From a virus (lineage: Duplodnaviria; Heunggongvirae; Uroviricota; Caudoviricetes), in the IMG/VR virus record IMGVR_UViG_2778261058_000008, positions 1 to 4,534 of that record: 4,534 bases of DNA, one strand, 5' to 3'. Positions 1-4,534 of this stretch are shown here, one piece after another (within the stretch, counting starts at the first letter, position 1; each line of letters begins with the position of its first letter). The notes below the pieces were generated by a model. That model made no database searches and had not been told where the DNA came from. It saw only the letters and a list, made by a program, of their open reading frames with translations. A program made the translations under genes and the position numbers.

Positions 1-2
1 GT

Positions 3-30
3 TTGCGGGAAAAGGAGAGTTAAGTAGAAT
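3..30 (+). promoter_or_regulatory. Candidate sigma70 promoter for the hok mRNA
   Basis: -35-like TTGCGG (3-8), 16-nt spacer, -10 TAGAAT (25-30). Predicted start near 37-39 sits just upstream of the conserved 5' hairpin and gives a ~415-nt transcript ending at the 432-453 terminator, the size expected for a full-length hok mRNA. Window edge truncates the upstream context. Confidence 0.35.
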
Positions 31-43
31 TGCTGCGGGTGCT

Positions 44-60
44 TGAGGCTATCTGCCTCA
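44..60 (+). promoter_or_regulatory. 5' stem-loop of the hok mRNA (tac-like element)
   Basis: TGAGGC (44-49) pairs with GCCTCA (55-60) around a 5-nt loop. The surrounding GCTTGAGGCTATCTGCCTCA closely matches the 5' end of the plasmid R1 hok mRNA as I recall it (GCUUGAGGCUUUCUGCCUCA). Confidence 0.4.
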
Positions 61-94
61 GGCATGAACACCAAAAGGCAGATAGAGAAAAGCC

Positions 95-173
95 CCAGTT
101 AACATTACGCGTCCTGCAAGACGCTTAACATTAATCTGAGGCCCAATCTATGTCTCACAAATGTAGGTTAGCC
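95..173 (-). ncRNA. Candidate Sok-like antisense RNA (type I antitoxin); boundaries approximate
   Basis: Placed by analogy to hok/sok: antisense to the mok-like initiation region. Minus strand has weak promoter candidates (TTGCCT-17-TAACCT, or a TAAGAG -10 that is conserved with my recollection of R1) and a hairpin GCGTC-loop-GACGC (complement of 109-124) followed by a U-rich stretch. Start and end cannot be fixed from sequence alone. Confidence 0.3.
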
Positions 174-362
174 TCTTACGTGCCGAAAGGCAAGGAGAAG
201 CAGGCTATGAAGCAGCAAAAGGCGATGTTAATCGCCCTGATCGTCATCTGTTTAACCGTCATAGTGACGGCACTGGTAACGAGGAAAGACCTCTGCGAGG
301 TACGAATCCGAACCGGCCAGACGGAGGTCGCTGTCTTCGTAGACTACGAATCTAGAGAGTAA
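150..362 (+). CDS. mok-equivalent reading frame, here in frame with hok (70 codons, would give an N-terminally extended Hok)
   Basis: ATG at 150 with GAGG (138-141) 8 nt upstream. Flanking CTATGTCT and AGCCTCTTAC match the mok start region of R1 as I recall it. In R1 mok is offset +1 from hok; here the mok-ATG to hok-ATG distance is 57 nt, so the frames coincide. Confidence 0.3.
   Translation: MSHKCRLASYVPKGKEKQAMKQQKAMLIALIVICLTVIVTALVTRKDLCEVRIRTGQTEVAVFVDYESRE
207..362 (+). CDS. hokD: Hok/Gef-family type I toxin, 51 aa (small membrane peptide)
   Basis: Translation MKQQKAMLIALIVICLTVIVTALVTRKDLCEVRIRTGQTEVAVFVDYESRE: single hydrophobic helix, conserved LTRK..LCE.R motif of Hok proteins, near-identical over most of its length to HokD/RelF of E. 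coli K-12 as I recall it. SD AAGGAG (192-197) 9 nt before the ATG. Gene symbol is by similarity and position, not verified. Confidence 0.85.
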   Translation: MKQQKAMLIALIVICLTVIVTALVTRKDLCEVRIRTGQTEVAVFVDYESRE

Positions 363-371
363 GAGAGACCA

Positions 372-393
372 GGCGGGAGAGTAATCTCCCGCC
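372..393 (+). promoter_or_regulatory. 3' stem-loop of the hok mRNA (fbi-like element)
   Basis: 9-bp stem GGCGGGAGA (372-380) / TCTCCCGCC (385-393) closed by a GUAA (GNRA) tetraloop, 10 nt after the hok stop. Assignment as the fold-back element is by analogy to hok mRNAs. Confidence 0.4.
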
Positions 394-431
394 ACCTCTG
401 ATGTGTCGGCATCCTCAACGCACCCGCGCTT

Positions 432-453
432 AACCCGCTTCGGCGGGTTTTTT
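432..453 (+). terminator. Intrinsic terminator ending the hok transcript
   Basis: Stem AACCCGC / GCGGGTT with a UUCG tetraloop (439-442), followed by six T (448-453). Confidence 0.7.
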
Positions 454-528
454 GTTTTACGTATTCTGGTTTACAATCCACAGGCCAGCCTGAACAACTG
501 GCACCTGCTGCGCCAGCAGAGAAAACAG

Positions 529-801
529 ATGGCGCACAATACCAAATTACACAATTCTGATACCGTTCGTGCCAGCAGGCACGGGCGGCGCTCTCACGCA
601 TTCAAATATGACTGGTATCAGCACGATCCCTGCACTGAAGAACAGGCCGAATGGCTGATTCAGAACTACCGCAGACGTGGGTATGAGTTTAAGAAAGCCC
701 TCAACCTCGATTATCGTCACTGGATAATCTACGTCAGACTCCCTTATTCCGAACGCCCACCGCGTCCGTCCCGCACATTCCAGCAACGCATCTGGAGGTA
801 A
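529..801 (+). CDS. Hypothetical small phage protein, 90 aa, at the position Rem occupies in Qin
   Basis: ATG at 529 (weak SD GAGAAA); stop TAA 799-801 lies 1 nt before the GTG of the next gene, so the two look coupled. The longer track ORF from 403 would start inside the hok terminator and is not favoured. No recognisable motif; function unknown. Confidence 0.5.
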   Translation: MAHNTKLHNSDTVRASRHGRRSHAFKYDWYQHDPCTEEQAEWLIQNYRRRGYEFKKALNLDYRHWIIYVRLPYSERPPRPSRTFQQRIWR

Positions 802-802
802 C

Positions 803-1852
803 GTGCGGGTATTGCTTCGACCTGTTCCGGTACCGGAACTCGGGCTGGTGGTCCTTAAGCCTGGTCGTGAATCCATGCAGGTATTTCATAACCCTCGAGT
901 GCTGGTGGAACCGGAACCGAAAAGCATGCGCGGTCTGCCGTCCGGAGTCGTTCCTGCCATTCGCCAGCCGCTGGCGGAAGACAAAACATTGCTGCCGTTT
1001 TTCAGTAACGAACGGGTGATTCGTGCTGCTGGCGGCGCTGGTGCACTTTCTGACTGGCTGTTGCGTCATGTCAAATCCTGCCAGTGGCCTCATGGCGACT
1101 ATCACCACAGCGAAACCGTCATACATCGTTACGGTACCGGCGCGATGGTGTTGTGCTGGCACTGCGACAACCAGCTGCGTGACCAGACTTCCGAATCACT
1201 CGGGCAACTTGCTCATCAAAACCTGTCAGCATGGATGACTGACGTCATCCGTCACGCAATGAATGGCACACAGGAGCGGGAATTATCGCTGGCTGAATTA
1301 TCCTGGTGGGCGGTCTGCAATCAGGTAGCGGACGCATTACCGGAGGCAGTATTACGTCGTTCGCTGGGATTGCGTGCGGAAAAAATCCGCTCAATGTACC
1401 GTGAAAGCGACATCGTACCGGGAGAGCAGACCGCCACCAGCATACTGAAGCAGCGCACAAAAAATCTTGCGCCGTTGCCTCACGTCCACCAGCAACAGAA
1501 CGCACCACAGGAAAAGACGGTGGTCAGCATTGCCGTAGATCCGGAGTCTCCGGAATCTTTCATGAAGCGACCTAAACGTCGCCGTTGGGTAAATGAGAAA
1601 TACACGCGCTGGGTGAAGACACAGCCGTGTGCGTGTTGTGGCAAGCCAGCCGACGATCCCCATCACCTGATTGGTCATGGTCAGGGAGGGATGGGAACAA
1701 AAGCCCACGATATTTTCACGCTACCGCTGTGCCGGGAACATCACAACGAGCTTCATGCGGATCCGCTGGCGTTCGAAGAAAAGCATGGTTCCCAGGTTGA
1801 TTTAATTTTTCGTTTTCTTGATCACGCCTTTGCAACTGGCGTGCTTGGGTAA
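803..1852 (+). CDS. ydfU: DUF968-family phage protein, 349 aa, with a C-terminal Cys/His-rich nuclease-like motif
   Basis: GTG start at 803 preceded by GGAGG (794-798). Same length and gene position as YdfU of Qin in my recollection. C-terminus reads CACCGKPADDPHHLIGHG...LPLCREHHNELH (about 1630-1760), resembling a zinc-binding HNH-like signature. Confidence 0.8.
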   Translation: MRVLLRPVPVPELGLVVLKPGRESMQVFHNPRVLVEPEPKSMRGLPSGVVPAIRQPLAEDKTLLPFFSNERVIRAAGGAGALSDWLLRHVKSCQWPHGDYHHSETVIHRYGTGAMVLCWHCDNQLRDQTSESLGQLAHQNLSAWMTDVIRHAMNGTQERELSLAELSWWAVCNQVADALPEAVLRRSLGLRAEKIRSMYRESDIVPGEQTATSILKQRTKNLAPLPHVHQQQNAPQEKTVVSIAVDPESPESFMKRPKRRRWVNEKYTRWVKTQPCACCGKPADDPHHLIGHGQGGMGTKAHDIFTLPLCREHHNELHADPLAFEEKHGSQVDLIFRFLDHAFATGVLG

Positions 1853-1864
1853 AAGAGGTGACTG

Positions 1865-2224
1865 ATGCTCATAGATTTGGTTTTACCTTACCCGCCGACG
1901 GTGAACACTTACTGGCGACGCCGTGGCAGCACATATTTTATCTCGGAGGAGGGAAAGCGTTATCGTCGGGCTGTGGCGCTTATTGTTCGCCAGCAGCGGC
2001 TGAAATTAAGCCTGTCCGGAAGGCTGGCGATAAAGGTGATTGCAGAGCCACCGGATAAGCGTCGTCGCGACCTGGACAATATCCTGAAAGCACCACTGGA
2101 TGCGTTGACGCATGCGGGGTTGCTTATCGACGACGAGCAGTTTGATGAAATCAATATTGTGCGCGGTCAGGTCGTTCCTGGTGGTCGGCTGGGGATAAAA
2201 ATCACAGAGCTGGAGTGCGCATGA
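1865..2224 (+). CDS. rusA: RusA-family Holliday junction resolvase, 119 aa
   Basis: SD GAGGTG (1855-1860) then ATG 1865. Translation carries the RusA core PDKRRRDLDN...LIDDEQ; the three Asp at 69, 71 and 90 line up with the catalytic D70/D72/D91 of E. coli RusA. Confidence 0.9.
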   Translation: MLIDLVLPYPPTVNTYWRRRGSTYFISEEGKRYRRAVALIVRQQRLKLSLSGRLAIKVIAEPPDKRRRDLDNILKAPLDALTHAGLLIDDEQFDEINIVRGQVVPGGRLGIKITELECA

Positions 2225-2910
2225 ATAACCAGTATTTACAGTTTGTTCGTGAGCAGCTCATTATCGCCACCGCCGATTTGAGTGGGGCAACAAAAGGTCA
2301 GCTTGAAGCCTGGCAGGAGAATGCCATGTTCGATACAGGGCGTTACAGGCGTAAAAAAATCCGGTACCGCGATGAAGTGACCGGAAAAATGATCACGCGG
2401 GATAATCCACCAATCCCGGGGAAACAATCGCTGGCGAAGGGGACGTCAATTCCTCTGGTAAGTCAGGTTGAGTTTTCGACATCATCATGGCGACGGGCAG
2501 TTCTGTCTCTTGAAGAACATCATAAAACCTGGTTGTTGTGGTGTTACAGCGGGAGTATTTGCTGGGAGTATCAGGTCACCATAACCCGCTGGGCATGGGA
2601 AGAGTTTAAGGCTCATTCTGGCAACAGGAAAATTGCAGAGAAAACACGGGAGCGCCTGAAAAAATTAATCTGGCTGGCGGCACAGGATGTGAAGAGTGAG
2701 CTAGCTGGGCGTGAAACTTATGAATATCAGGAACTGGCATTACTGGCGGGAGTAACAACAAAAAACTGGTCCAAAACATTTACTGGTCACTGGGTTGCAA
2801 TGAAACACATTTTCCACCGGCTGGATAGTGAGGCTTTATTGTTTGTGATGAGAACACGCTCAGAACAAAAGACGGCATTTTCAAAGCAAAGTGTTGCAAA
2901 AGTAGATTAA
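2221..2910 (+). CDS. Late-gene antiterminator Q-like protein (Q82/Qin-type), 229 aa
   Basis: ATG 2221 overlaps the rusA stop (ATGA at 2221-2224) with GGAG 5 nt upstream; an in-frame GTG at 2215 is an alternative start. Gene lies directly after rusA, and its 3' end overlaps a promoter that is followed about 70 nt later by a terminator, the geometry of Q / PR' / tR'. Family call rests on context and general resemblance, not a search. Confidence 0.6.
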   Translation: MNNQYLQFVREQLIIATADLSGATKGQLEAWQENAMFDTGRYRRKKIRYRDEVTGKMITRDNPPIPGKQSLAKGTSIPLVSQVEFSTSSWRRAVLSLEEHHKTWLLWCYSGSICWEYQVTITRWAWEEFKAHSGNRKIAEKTRERLKKLIWLAAQDVKSELAGRETYEYQELALLAGVTTKNWSKTFTGHWVAMKHIFHRLDSEALLFVMRTRSEQKTAFSKQSVAKVD

Positions 2911-2922
2911 AAGGCATATATT
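2894..2922 (+). promoter_or_regulatory. PR'-like late promoter overlapping the 3' end of the Q-like gene
   Basis: -35 TTGCAA (2894-2899), 17-bp spacer, -10 TATATT (2917-2922); predicted start near 2929-2930. Confidence 0.45.
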
Positions 2923-2928
2923 TCGTGC

Positions 2929-2999
2929 AAATCTGATATTTTGCCGATTTTGTACTCGATGGCAAAGTAAGCAAATCCCGCCGCCGAGCGGGTTTTTTT
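2929..2999 (+). ncRNA. Short terminated late-promoter transcript, about 70 nt (analogous to lambda 6S RNA / StxS)
   Basis: Runs from the predicted PR'-like start to the T-tract of the tR'-like terminator; no ORF with an SD inside. Confidence 0.3.
2977..2999 (+). terminator. tR'-like intrinsic terminator
   Basis: Stem CCCGC (2977-2981) / GCGGG (2988-2992), 6-nt loop, seven T (2993-2999). Confidence 0.75.
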
Positions 3000-3014
3000 G
3001 TTGGCTTAACAGGT

Positions 3015-3020
3015 TATAAT
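3015..3020 (+). promoter_or_regulatory. Consensus -10 hexamer TATAAT; possible moron promoter for the MazF-like gene
   Basis: Perfect TATAAT 84 nt upstream of the ATG at 3104, but only a T-rich, poor -35 that overlaps the terminator T-tract. Confidence 0.3.
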
Positions 3021-3103
3021 GTATAGTGCGAAACTGCCTGTTCAGCAGAATCATTTTGTTTGTAGTGGAGTTCACAAGTCGTCATTATCAGGCAAAGAGA
3101 TTT

Positions 3104-3505
3104 ATGGTATTAAAGTATCAGCCGTCTGTTCGTTCTGTTTTAATGTGTGATTTTCGGGGAATGGTTGTTCCGGAAATAGTCAAGGTCAGGCCAGTGGTGG
3201 TCGTGTCCAGAAACAGGCACAACAATCAATTGGTAACAGTGGTACCAATAAGCACTACTGAACCGCTCCCTCGCAGAGATTGCCATCATGAGTTATCAGA
3301 AAACCCCATACCTGGTAATGAGCATATTACTTGCTGGGTAAAATGTGACATGTTGATGACGGTTTCATTGAGCCGACTGGATCGCATAAAAACCAGAACC
3401 TGGGAGGGACGAAATTATATTGTTCCTATGATTGCGGAAGATGAGTTTGAGAATATTAAACGGGCGGTATTGCACGGGATAGGGATGGCTTATCTGTATC
3501 GATAA
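3104..3505 (+). CDS. MazF/PemK/Kid-fold (CcdB/MazF superfamily) toxin-like protein, 133 aa, with no adjacent antitoxin ORF
   Basis: ATG 3104 with SD AAAGAGA (3094-3100). Translation SVLMCDFRGMVVPEIVKVRPVVVVSRNRHNNQLVTVVPISTTEP matches the MazF pattern (IWVDFDP...HRPAVVLS...CVPCTT) with the same 11-residue spacing between DF and RP; C-terminal region also aligns loosely. Could alternatively belong to an uncharacterised phage late-region family such as the YbcV/YdfO (DUF1398) type; I cannot tell them apart without a search. Confidence 0.6.
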   Translation: MVLKYQPSVRSVLMCDFRGMVVPEIVKVRPVVVVSRNRHNNQLVTVVPISTTEPLPRRDCHHELSENPIPGNEHITCWVKCDMLMTVSLSRLDRIKTRTWEGRNYIVPMIAEDEFENIKRAVLHGIGMAYLYR

Positions 3506-3529
3506 TCGAAAACGATTATCGAATTCGAT
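3499..3529. repeat. Palindrome cluster overlapping the stop codon of the MazF-like gene
   Basis: Perfect 10-bp inverted repeat TCGATAATCG (3499-3508) / CGATTATCGA (3513-3522) with an AAAA spacer, overlapping a 12-bp perfect palindrome ATCGAATTCGAT (3518-3529). Stop codon TAA is at 3503-3505. Confidence 0.7.
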
Positions 3530-3540
3530 ATGAATTTATA

Positions 3541-3569
3541 TTGACACACATAGTGTGTTGGCTGATACT
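3541..3569 (+). promoter_or_regulatory. Strong sigma70 promoter candidate with a palindrome in the spacer
   Basis: Consensus -35 TTGACA (3541-3546), 17-bp spacer, -10 GATACT (3564-3569), AT-rich tract upstream (3530-3540). Spacer holds ACACA-TAG-TGTGT (3546-3558), which looks like an operator. Confidence 0.5.
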
Positions 3570-3575
3570 GTCGCT

Positions 3576-3690
3576 GTACCCTGATGGGACTTGTGAGACT
3601 TCCGAACAGGAAGCCAGGAGTAGCGATGAGGTGATGACAAGCCTGCTGCCCCTGTGTAAAAGGCACCTTAATGGTGCCTTTGTCGTTTTT
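3576..3690 (+). ncRNA. Candidate small RNA, about 115 nt (about 148 nt if it reads to the second terminator at 3723)
   Basis: Defined by the promoter at 3541-3569 and the hairpin plus T-tract at 3659-3690. Only trivial ORFs inside: a 2-codon ORF after AGGAG (3616-3620) and a 25-codon frame from ATG 3634 that runs through the terminator stem and has no properly spaced SD. Confidence 0.3.
3659..3690 (+). terminator. Intrinsic terminator candidate
   Basis: Stem AAGGCACC / GGTGCCTT around loop TTAAT, then GTCG and five T (3686-3690). Confidence 0.5.
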
Positions 3691-3700
3691 ATCAAAAGAT

Positions 3701-3723
3701 CCCGCCACTGAGCGGGTTTTTTT
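3701..3723 (+). terminator. Intrinsic terminator; near-identical second copy of the tR'-like terminator
   Basis: Stem CCCGC (3701-3705) / GCGGG (3712-3716), 6-nt loop, seven T (3717-3723). ATCCCGCC...GAGCGGGTTTTTTTGT is shared with 2974-3002; only two loop bases differ. Confidence 0.75.
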
Positions 3724-3845
3724 GTGTCCTAAAAACGGCACAGGACGTTAAACGCGCTGGTGGTTGCGAATACGGGTCTTTCAGCTTGCTGGCTTTTTCG
3801 ACAAGAGTTATTGGTATGTCACGTTAACCAGAAAAGGAAAAAGAC

Positions 3846-4043
3846 ATGCTAAAACAGCAGGATATGACCGAAACTGCCAGAGTAGTGTTTAATGAATTGA
3901 GCGTCACCGAACCGGCGACCGTCGGGGAAATTGCGCAGAACACGTACCTTTCACGCGAACGCTGCCAGTTAATACTGACTCAGCTTGTTATGGCAGGTCT
4001 GGCAGATTATCAGTTCGGTTGTTACAGACGCCTTTCGCAGTGA
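3846..4043 (+). CDS. Small 65-aa protein, probable winged-helix/HTH DNA-binding protein
   Basis: SD AAGGA (3834-3838) 7 nt before ATG 3846. Segment ATVGEIAQNTYLSRERCQLILTQLVMAGL has helix-turn-helix character. Function is inferred, not established. Confidence 0.6.
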   Translation: MLKQQDMTETARVVFNELSVTEPATVGEIAQNTYLSRERCQLILTQLVMAGLADYQFGCYRRLSQ

Positions 4044-4193
4044 AGGTTTTTTTATTTGTGGTAATGGGCGGCTGGTGGGTGTTAGCGGCACCTGCCAGCC
4101 ATCTGCTCATGCGTTGGGGTCACAAGCAAACCTCAGGCCCATCTGCTTTGCGCAAAAGCGGTATGAGCCTATCAGAGAAGTGCTTATTGATCT

Positions 4194-4534
4194 ATGGCTA
4201 ATACTGTAAAAATATCCAGTTGTGAGTTAATCAACGCTGATTGCCTGGAATTTATCCAGACCTTACCGGAAAACTCTGTCGATCTGATAGTCACAGACCC
4301 GCCATACTTTAAAGTGAAGCCCGAGGGCTGGGATAACCAGTGGAAGGGCGACGATGATTACCTGAAATGGCTGGATCAGTGTCTGGCGCAATTCTGGCGG
4401 GTACTGAAACCTGCCGGAAGTCTCTACCTGTTCTGTGGTCATCGCCTGGCATCTGACACCGAAATCATGATGCGTCAGCGCTTTAATGTGCTGAACCACA
4501 TTATCTGGGCGAAGCCGTCCGGACGCTGGAACGG
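4194..4534 (+). CDS. N6-adenine DNA methyltransferase (N6_N4 MTase type), 5' part only; runs off the window
   Basis: Hand translation from ATG 4194 gives MANTVKISSCELINADCLEFIQTLPENSVDLIVTDPPYF... with the catalytic DPPY motif in the SVDLI-x-x-DPPY context seen in beta-class adenine methylases such as E. coli YhdJ. In-frame TGA directly upstream (4188-4190) fixes the start. No stop before the window end, which is why it is missing from the ORF track. Confidence 0.85.
   Translation, partial: MANTVKISSCELINADCLEFIQTLPENSVDLIVTDPPYFKVKPEGWDNQWKGDDDYLKWLDQCLAQFWRVLKPAGSLYLFCGHRLASDTEIMMRQRFNVLNHIIWAKPSGRWN

Follow-up and report, generated by a model that had tools for sequence, protein, structure and literature searches.

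The first 460 nucleotides of a viral sequence from the IMG/VR collection (record IMGVR_UViG_2778261058_000008, of which positions 1 to 4,534 were analysed and are called here the window) very probably hold an intact hok/mok/sok locus, a type I toxin-antitoxin (TA) system of the hokD/hokW subfamily set in a Qin-like lambdoid prophage, within its early-right operon. The window as a whole (4,534 bases) is part of a lambda-like or Qin-like lambdoid prophage of Escherichia coli, and the locus fills the position where E. coli K-12 has only a truncated hokD gene. A complete hok/sok regulatory architecture in this region had been the original prediction, and each of the elements that it listed turned up in place or very nearly so. 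The novelty that it implied is a different matter: the family, its RNA switch and its occurrence in lambdoid prophages are already documented, a 95% identical copy has already been tested, mokW, hokW and sokW are annotated in the GenBank record AF125520 of phage 933W, and the form with a leader is commoner than the K-12 form, so that the locus as such is not new. Its elements are the following:

Positions 3-30, plus strand: candidate hok promoter, with a -35 hexamer TTGCGG at 3-8 (3 of 6 matches), a 16-nt spacer and a -10 hexamer TAGAAT at 25-30 (5 of 6).
Positions 37-453, plus strand: full-length hok mRNA, with an inferred start (+1) at G37 and an inferred end in the U run past the terminator.
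Positions 37-48, plus strand: tac (translational activator) element, GGGUGCUUGAGG, which pairs with 413-425 in the minimum free energy (MFE) fold and in the ensemble.
Positions 39-65, plus strand: metastable 5′ hairpin predicted on the nascent transcript (39-49 with 55-65; -19.6 kcal/mol).
Positions 90-98, plus strand: ucb, an anti-Shine-Dalgarno box, AAGCCCCAG, partner of the mok Shine-Dalgarno in the closed form and of tac in the open form.
Positions 138-141, plus strand: mok Shine-Dalgarno (SDmok), GAGG, invariant in 28 loci and paired in the closed fold.
Positions 150-362, plus strand: mok reading frame of 70 codons, from ATG 150, in frame with hok.
Positions 158-88 (approximately), minus strand: Sok antisense RNA gene, transferred from the sokW feature of 933W, with a 5′ tail, a long hairpin and a U tract.
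Positions 171-175, plus strand: dcb box, GCCUC, partner of SDmok in the open form, nearly invariant.
Positions 193-165, minus strand: Sok promoter, with a -35 hexamer TTGCCT at 193-188, a 17-nt spacer and a -10 hexamer TAACCT at 170-165.
Positions 193-197, plus strand: hok Shine-Dalgarno, AGGAG, conserved.
Positions 207-362, plus strand: coding sequence (CDS) of the Hok toxin, 51 amino acids (Pfam PF01848, HOK_GEF, 79.8 bits against a cut-off of 22).
Positions 372-393, plus strand: GNRA-capped 3′ hairpin of 9 bp, GGCGGGAGA-GUAA-UCUCCCGCC, the presumed stop for 3′ trimming.
Positions 413-425, plus strand: fbi (fold-back inhibition) element, CCUCAACGCACCC, with C419 bulged.
Positions 432-453, plus strand: intrinsic terminator, with a stem at 432-449 followed by a T/U run.

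The two ends of the hok mRNA pair with each other, the long-range contact for which a fold of 37-453 had been proposed as the test. The MFE fold of this transcript joins 37-48 to 413-425 in a helix of 12 bp with C419 bulged, and the pair probabilities reach 0.97-1.00 for 11 of the pairs and 0.69 for the last one. The whole RNA folds at -167.8 kcal/mol, compared with -124.5 ± 5.3 kcal/mol for its shuffled versions (z = -8.2), and none of the 100 shuffles was as good. Conservation was followed in 47 loci taken from genomes that represent their species, together with 7 plasmid loci. An unbiased scan compared each 14-mer lying between -230 and -120 from the hok ATG, a range of which the window supplies only -206 to -120, with the 3′ untranslated region (UTR). 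In 29 of 44 loci, the window included, it selected the tac at the 5′ end (starting at most 3 nt from the inferred +1) and a single 3′ box, located 45-56 nt past the stop codon. The fbi element starts at this same distance from the stop codon in all the leader-bearing loci, and in the relE-fused loci, where relE replaces the leader, the best 14-mer duplex was no better than those of shuffles. The scan took the place of a duplex search across the whole upstream and downstream flanks, which had returned long spurious duplexes.

The tac/fbi helix is conserved with compensatory changes. Eighteen distinct versions occur in Escherichia, Kluyvera, Citrobacter, Photorhabdus, Pantoea, Erwinia, Kalamiella and one Vibrio plasmid, and a script allowing a one-base bulge counted 212 paired positions out of 216 over the full 12-pair helix; as a permutation control, the fbi boxes were dealt out among the loci, which gave 201.5 ± 2.2 pairs, and none of 5000 deals reached 212. 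Position 4 is U-A in 10 of the versions, C-G in 5, U-G in 2 and unpaired in 1, position 11 goes through the series G-C, G-U and A-U, position 12 alternates between G-C and A-U, and in the Vibrio version and one of the Erwinia versions the distal half of the helix was rebuilt from other bases. MAFFT set the fbi boxes that have no bulge (Photorhabdus and Pantoea) one column off and misplaced the 3′ ends of the loci that resemble hok/sok of plasmid R1 (R1-type), so the alignment-based count of covariation was limited to the six terminal pairs, where the register is unambiguous. When the partner of these six pairs is slid by 1-3 columns, pairing falls from 99% to 27-60%.

The tac element has a second partner in the metastable hairpin, which is the structure that the first 36 nt of the transcript adopt when folded alone (again -19.6 kcal/mol). 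Over 28 loci this hairpin has 93% of its cells paired, and 7 of its 11 pairs change on both sides; tac covaries with its metastable partner in column 4 (UA in 17 loci, CG in 7) and in column 12 (GC in 13, GU in 9, AU in 6). Such a coupled covariation of tac, with fbi and with the metastable partner, is reportedly known for the hok mRNA family from the work of Gultyaev, Franch and Gerdes in 1997. The 3′ hairpin, also over 28 loci, is 92.5% paired, with 4 pairs that change on both sides. In the subfamily these RNA structures are under ongoing selection, as is shown by the compensatory changes in tac/fbi and in both the metastable and the 3′ hairpins.

The boxes that would control mok translation are complementary in two alternative ways. 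In the closed predicted fold, ucb covers SDmok through six standard pairs (92-94 with 140-142, and 96-98 with 136-138). In the open form, tac pairs with ucb (37-39 with 94-96, and 41-44 with 90-93; 7 of 7 standard pairs) and SDmok with dcb (138-142 with 171-175; 5 of 5 standard pairs). Since ucb, SDmok and dcb are nearly invariant, they leave no covariation to count. An open-form model of the hok mRNA has been published (PMC9841398). Of the 51 pairs in the Rfam consensus structure, 9 are non-standard in the window, so that imposing the full structure carries a penalty of 15-25 kcal/mol, and thereafter only the two diagnostic helices were forced. Forcing tac/ucb and SDmok/dcb takes 9.8 kcal/mol when the RNA is full-length and 3.4 kcal/mol when it ends at 396, which puts the predicted open form within reach once fbi is absent. 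By these models, the proposed RNA switch is consistent with the sequence.

The leader itself is recognized as that of a hok gene. Positions 37-212 match the Rfam family RF01794 along the whole of the model (1-157 of 157) with 121.7 bits and E = 2e-28, against a gathering score of 59. Two positive controls, the 933W hokW leader and a plasmid locus of the R1 type, score 113.5 and 88.9 bits, respectively. Although named ‘sok’, RF01794 sits on the hok sense strand and stops at the hok AUG, and it models the open-form leader antisense to Sok. The model begins at G37, 6 nt after the end of the -10 hexamer of the candidate promoter, and a -10-like hexamer stands 6-7 nt before a conserved GGG in 43 of the 43 other leader-bearing loci listed. 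Positions 1-36 are identical to those of phage 933W, whose hokW mRNA is visible on Northern blots of uninduced lysogens (PMC8621323). The end of an upstream gene, which had been thought possible within the first 27 nt, does not lie there: in three relatives the nearest annotated upstream gene ends at least 86 nt before position 1, which makes these nucleotides promoter and spacer instead.

Translation of the mok region may matter more than its product. The mok Shine-Dalgarno and ATG, the mok-like initiation region proposed at the outset, keep a spacing of 7-10 nt in 28 of 28 loci, and the frame of mok relative to hok varies (18 loci have frame 0, 4 have +1 and 6 have +2), which fits a role for the act of translation and not for a Mok protein. 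The Hok CDS is intact, and sequences 100% identical to it exist in public collections on many contigs. Within it, the codon UAC of Tyr47 (345-347) lies in a CUACGAA loop (344-350) closed by 340-343 and 351-354. All 28 hok loci compared keep the motif UACGAA unchanged, and although the stem is coding sequence, both partners vary in 3 of its 4 pairs. This loop presumably copies the anticodon loop of tRNA-Arg(ACG), a substrate of TadA editing. An A-to-I editing of hokD (6%) that recodes the corresponding Tyr to Cys has been published (PMC12214031).

On the opposite strand, the Sok start can be read from the sequence near G158, and the RNA is predicted to fold into a long hairpin, preceded by an unpaired 5′ tail and followed by a UUUU tract. 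Positions 161-209, which include the Sok promoter, are identical in 933W. In the ‘pro-less’ sokW mutant of Takada et al., three bases of the same -10 hexamer were changed (primer YO-421) and antitoxin activity was lost (PMC8621323). The Sok hairpin carries, in the window as in 933W, the same insert of about 16 nt relative to the Rfam consensus.

The closest characterized relative is hokW-mokW-sokW of the Stx2 phages 933W and Sp5, and the 933W locus is 95% identical to the window over 1-435. The hok promoter region, tac, the Sok promoter, the hok Shine-Dalgarno and fbi are identical in both, mokW and the window mok alike have 70 codons in frame with hok, and the Hok protein of the window is the same as HokW except for the last two residues. 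The similarity ends at 435, and the window terminator is shared with K-12 hokD and not with hokW. The settings also differ: the window locus lies between early genes and a DUF968-rusA-Q block, co-oriented with both, whereas the 933W locus is near the right end of the phage and runs opposite to the tail genes. The window locus is a close paralogue or allele of hokW-sokW that belongs to a different prophage module and does not represent the same insertion. The hokW-sokW of Sp5 is a working type I TA system, where HokW is toxic and the sokW RNA counteracts it, with contributions of RNase III and Hfq (Takada et al. 2021, PMC8621323). During RecA-dependent induction Sok vanishes and HokW appears; presence of the locus speeds lysis and raises phage release about twofold, and in the deletion mutant growth arrest comes about 40 min later and phage release drops by half (PMC8621323). 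These effects, and neither a stabilisation of the plasmid type nor an exclusion of phages, are what was shown for this relative.

The comparison with K-12 separates the window from the best-known form of the gene. K-12 hokD (also relF, in the Qin prophage) aligns to the window only over 193-459, with 92.5% identity, a region that includes the hok Shine-Dalgarno, the CDS, the 3′ hairpin, fbi and the terminator. It has no counterpart of 37-192 and thus no tac, metastable hairpin, ucb, mok start, or Sok gene and promoter; relB and relE stand there instead, in agreement with the statement in the original prediction that K-12 hokD follows relBE and has neither mok nor sok. The hokD gene has been described as having lost its TA components by rearrangement (PMC12214031). 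One could then ask whether the window has the K-12 arrangement as well, with hokD as the third gene of relBE and no leader of its own, given that its Hok protein and 3′ UTR are hokD-like. This reading has practically no chance of being right and is refuted by the upstream region, which is hok leader and shows no similarity to relE over 1-192, together with the failure of RF01794 to match either the K-12 Qin stretch holding hokD or a relBE-hok plasmid. Both the window locus and K-12 hokD are located upstream of a ydfU/DUF968 gene (85% identity over 512-1852), a synteny that makes the window locus the positional, untruncated counterpart of hokD. In K-12 Qin, about 420 extra bases, with rem among them, separate hokD from the region that matches the window from 512 onward.

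Fusions of relBE with hok are found elsewhere. In an IncF plasmid of Phytobacter (positions 1-750 of locus L054), relB-relE is 98.7% identical to that of K-12 until 4 nt into the hok ATG, where an R1-like Hok CDS takes over, and a Kluyvera locus (L037) is a K-12-type fusion and not a chimera, with 89.4% identity to K-12 relBE-hokD over 846 bp. That relBE has been joined to two different hok subfamilies around the hok Shine-Dalgarno, a conserved box, suggests that recombination took place there.

The R1-type locus of an IncF plasmid, which stands here for hok/sok (parB) of plasmid R1, is much more distant from the window (45% identity for the nucleotides of the mRNA, 39% for the Hok protein), yet its elements succeed one another as they do in the window: tac, ucb (AGCCCC), SDmok (GAGG), the mok ATG and dcb (AGCCUC), besides an opposite-strand Sok promoter, a hok Shine-Dalgarno AAGGAG, UACGAA, the 3′ hairpin and fbi. 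Its mok is in the +1 frame, its tac is one G shorter, its fbi pairs through GAAGCGCC, the loop of its 3′ hairpin is not GNRA and its Sok hairpin is shorter.

The mechanism that we propose for the window copy is transferred from R1 hok/sok and hokW-sokW. In R1, the hok mRNA is processed at its 3′ end, RNase III cuts the duplex of hok and Sok, and cells are killed when Sok decays (reviewed in PMC9841398); part of this has been shown for hokW-sokW (PMC8621323). The sequence elements, their complementarity, their conservation and their covariation are direct observations; transcription, processing, refolding and killing we infer by analogy, and the word functional rests here on the 95% identity to the tested hokW-sokW. 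A weak promoter would produce a stable hok mRNA of about 417 nt, the 5′ end of which would be locked in the metastable hairpin while the RNA is nascent. In the finished mRNA, with tac paired to fbi and ucb lying over the mok Shine-Dalgarno, the RNA would be neither translated nor bound by Sok. A slow 3′ trimming up to the GNRA hairpin would then strip fbi and favour the tac/ucb and SDmok/dcb pairings, opening the mok start, and ribosomes on mok would allow the synthesis of Hok. The short-lived antisense Sok, transcribed from a stronger promoter inside the leader, would pair with this open form and block it; when the supply of Sok stops, Hok would be made and the inner membrane damaged.

Several observations weigh against this interpretation. 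The hok promoter, the weakest part of the architecture, is poor by consensus (8 of 12 matches), with a poor -35 at the extreme edge of the window that clips it, and the consensus promoter scan did not call it. Thermodynamic folding, contrary to expectation, fails to recover the switch: in its predicted optimum the RNA ending at 396 retains the metastable hairpin, and SDmok is paired in both this optimum and the ensemble. The Sok 5′ tail and the mok N-terminus (143-164) are unlike hokW in 7 of 22 positions between identical flanks, the 3′ terminator is not that of hokW, and the covariation controls leave in the relatedness of the sequences, although compensatory series are in kind independent of shared ancestry. 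Furthermore, the chromosomal hokA, hokB and hokC, with full architecture, are reported in a summary of work by Pedersen and Gerdes as unable to mediate post-segregational killing, and, as far as that summary goes, chromosomal loci with all the elements failed both this and rifampicin tests, so completeness is no proof of activity. The window locus could likewise be structurally complete and physiologically silent, without killing when Sok transcription stops, and kept by drift or by hitch-hiking with the prophage. The weak promoter and the switch that folding fails to reproduce would fit such a locus. We nevertheless regard this as unlikely, given the 95% identity to an active hokW-sokW that affects lysis, with identical promoter regions, the selection apparent in the compensatory changes of the subfamily, and a Hok CDS that is intact and identical to sequences on many contigs.

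As for the role of an active locus, the one we favour, though tentatively and at somewhat less than even confidence, is that of the tested relative: Hok would be made as Sok falls on prophage induction, and would lead to faster lysis and phage release. Addiction, the classical role of R1 hok/sok and the first of the two roles put forward in the original prediction, would mean that cells are killed once the prophage is lost from them, or that the cloned locus stabilises a plasmid, and both the ‘prophage maintenance’ note in the 933W record and the roughly fourfold enrichment of hok genes in prophages (bioRxiv 10.1101/2025.08.07.668861) would suit it. As a main role, however, it seems rather improbable, for deletion of hokW-sokW from Sp5 gave no growth defect and the effects measured were on lysis timing and phage yield (PMC8621323). 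Less probable still is phage exclusion by abortive infection, in which an incoming lytic phage would halt host transcription, and with it Sok synthesis, so that Hok would be released. R1 hok/sok on a high-copy plasmid cuts T4 plating by 42% and shrinks the plaques, according to the account given in PMC8621323, but this effect, as cited there, is modest and was obtained at high copy number; hok genes are not enriched beside defence systems (bioRxiv 10.1101/2025.08.07.668861), and the window Hok matches no PADLOC model.

One further observation concerns the divergent stretch 143-164, whose window version is also present in a second copy from another E. coli genome. Diversified Sok recognition tails could keep multiple copies within a genome from cross-reacting.

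In close relatives, same-strand genes of the early region (cro-like, YdaT and Ea22-like) precede the hok region, and tRNAs and lysis genes lie downstream; there are no tRNA genes in the window. The genes that follow the locus are:

Positions 529-801: open reading frame (ORF).
Positions 803-1852: DUF968 gene.
Positions 1865-2224: rusA.
Positions 2221-2910: Q antiterminator gene.
Positions 3104-3505: orphan ORF of the PemK/MazF family (Pfam, 52.7 bits).
Positions 3846-4043: small ORF.
Positions 4194 onward: DNA methyltransferase gene, of which only the start is included.

The ORF at 529-801 matches an unannotated K-12 stretch upstream of ydfU, and rusA, which stands in the window between DUF968 and Q, is absent from K-12. 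Directly past the Q gene there is a promoter-like site (2894-2922) and a terminator (2977-2992), with a weak IsrK-like match over 2927-2998 (19.5 bits against a gathering score of 50); the stretch 2894-2998 is probably the late promoter of this Q with a short terminated transcript. Next comes an insert of 724 bp, bounded by a 27-nt direct repeat of a terminator (2975-3001 and 3699-3725, 93% identical) and holding the PemK/MazF-family ORF, which has no adjoining antitoxin gene and no match in PADLOC or NCBIfam. Further on, the region 3541-3692 begins with a strong promoter-like site (TTGACA, 17 nt, GATACT; 10 of 12 matches), which is followed by a structured stretch of 117 nt (3576-3692, z = -4.2) that ends in a terminator at 3659-3681 and matches no Rfam family. 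An RNA antitoxin for PemK/MazF was considered for 3576-3692 and rejected as the leading idea, as this stretch occurs without PemK after a different Q gene: in strain Z1323CEC0014, 3579-3700 alone follows such a gene, ahead of tRNAs and a holin, which makes a second late-promoter leader, with a short 6S-like transcript, the probable identity.

Among 5,426 complete E. coli genomes, the best match to the whole window has 96.0% identity and the best match to 1-460 alone 98.9%, and most of the 724-bp insert is present in only 24 genomes. Outside this set, hok fragments with 93-100% protein identity appear on tiny contigs of the Acinetobacter idrijaensis (275 bp) and Xanthomonas pisi (431 bp) assemblies, and a lambdoid record titled ‘Actinobacillus phage vB_Apl-pPE4’ has 96% nucleotide identity over 1-456. 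These matches labelled Acinetobacter, Xanthomonas and Actinobacillus look like E. coli-derived contamination or mislabelling.

Leader-bearing copies, defined by a match over at least 80% of 1-460, which demands the leader, occur in 3,928 of these complete genomes, and the K-12 relE-hokD junction is rarer, with 1,173. The K-12 reference form of hokD is, in consequence, the minority and truncated state of this gene. Genome pipelines annotate just the Hok CDS here, and to thousands of copies one can add, by transfer, the mok start, Sok and the RNA elements described above. The place of the locus in the early-right operon, unlike that of hokW near the right end of Sp5, might, by itself, couple Hok synthesis to induction through transcriptional interference, an idea to which we assign little probability. 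Once the prophage is induced, antiterminated transcription that starts at the early promoter would cross the cassette and meet the Sok promoter head-on, and in the read-through hok RNA tac would no longer be at a free 5′ end and the terminator would be read through. If true, this positional coupling would account mechanistically for the RecA-dependent disappearance of Sok in hokW-sokW, and the retention of a hok gene in this slot of Qin-like prophages would be explained as well.

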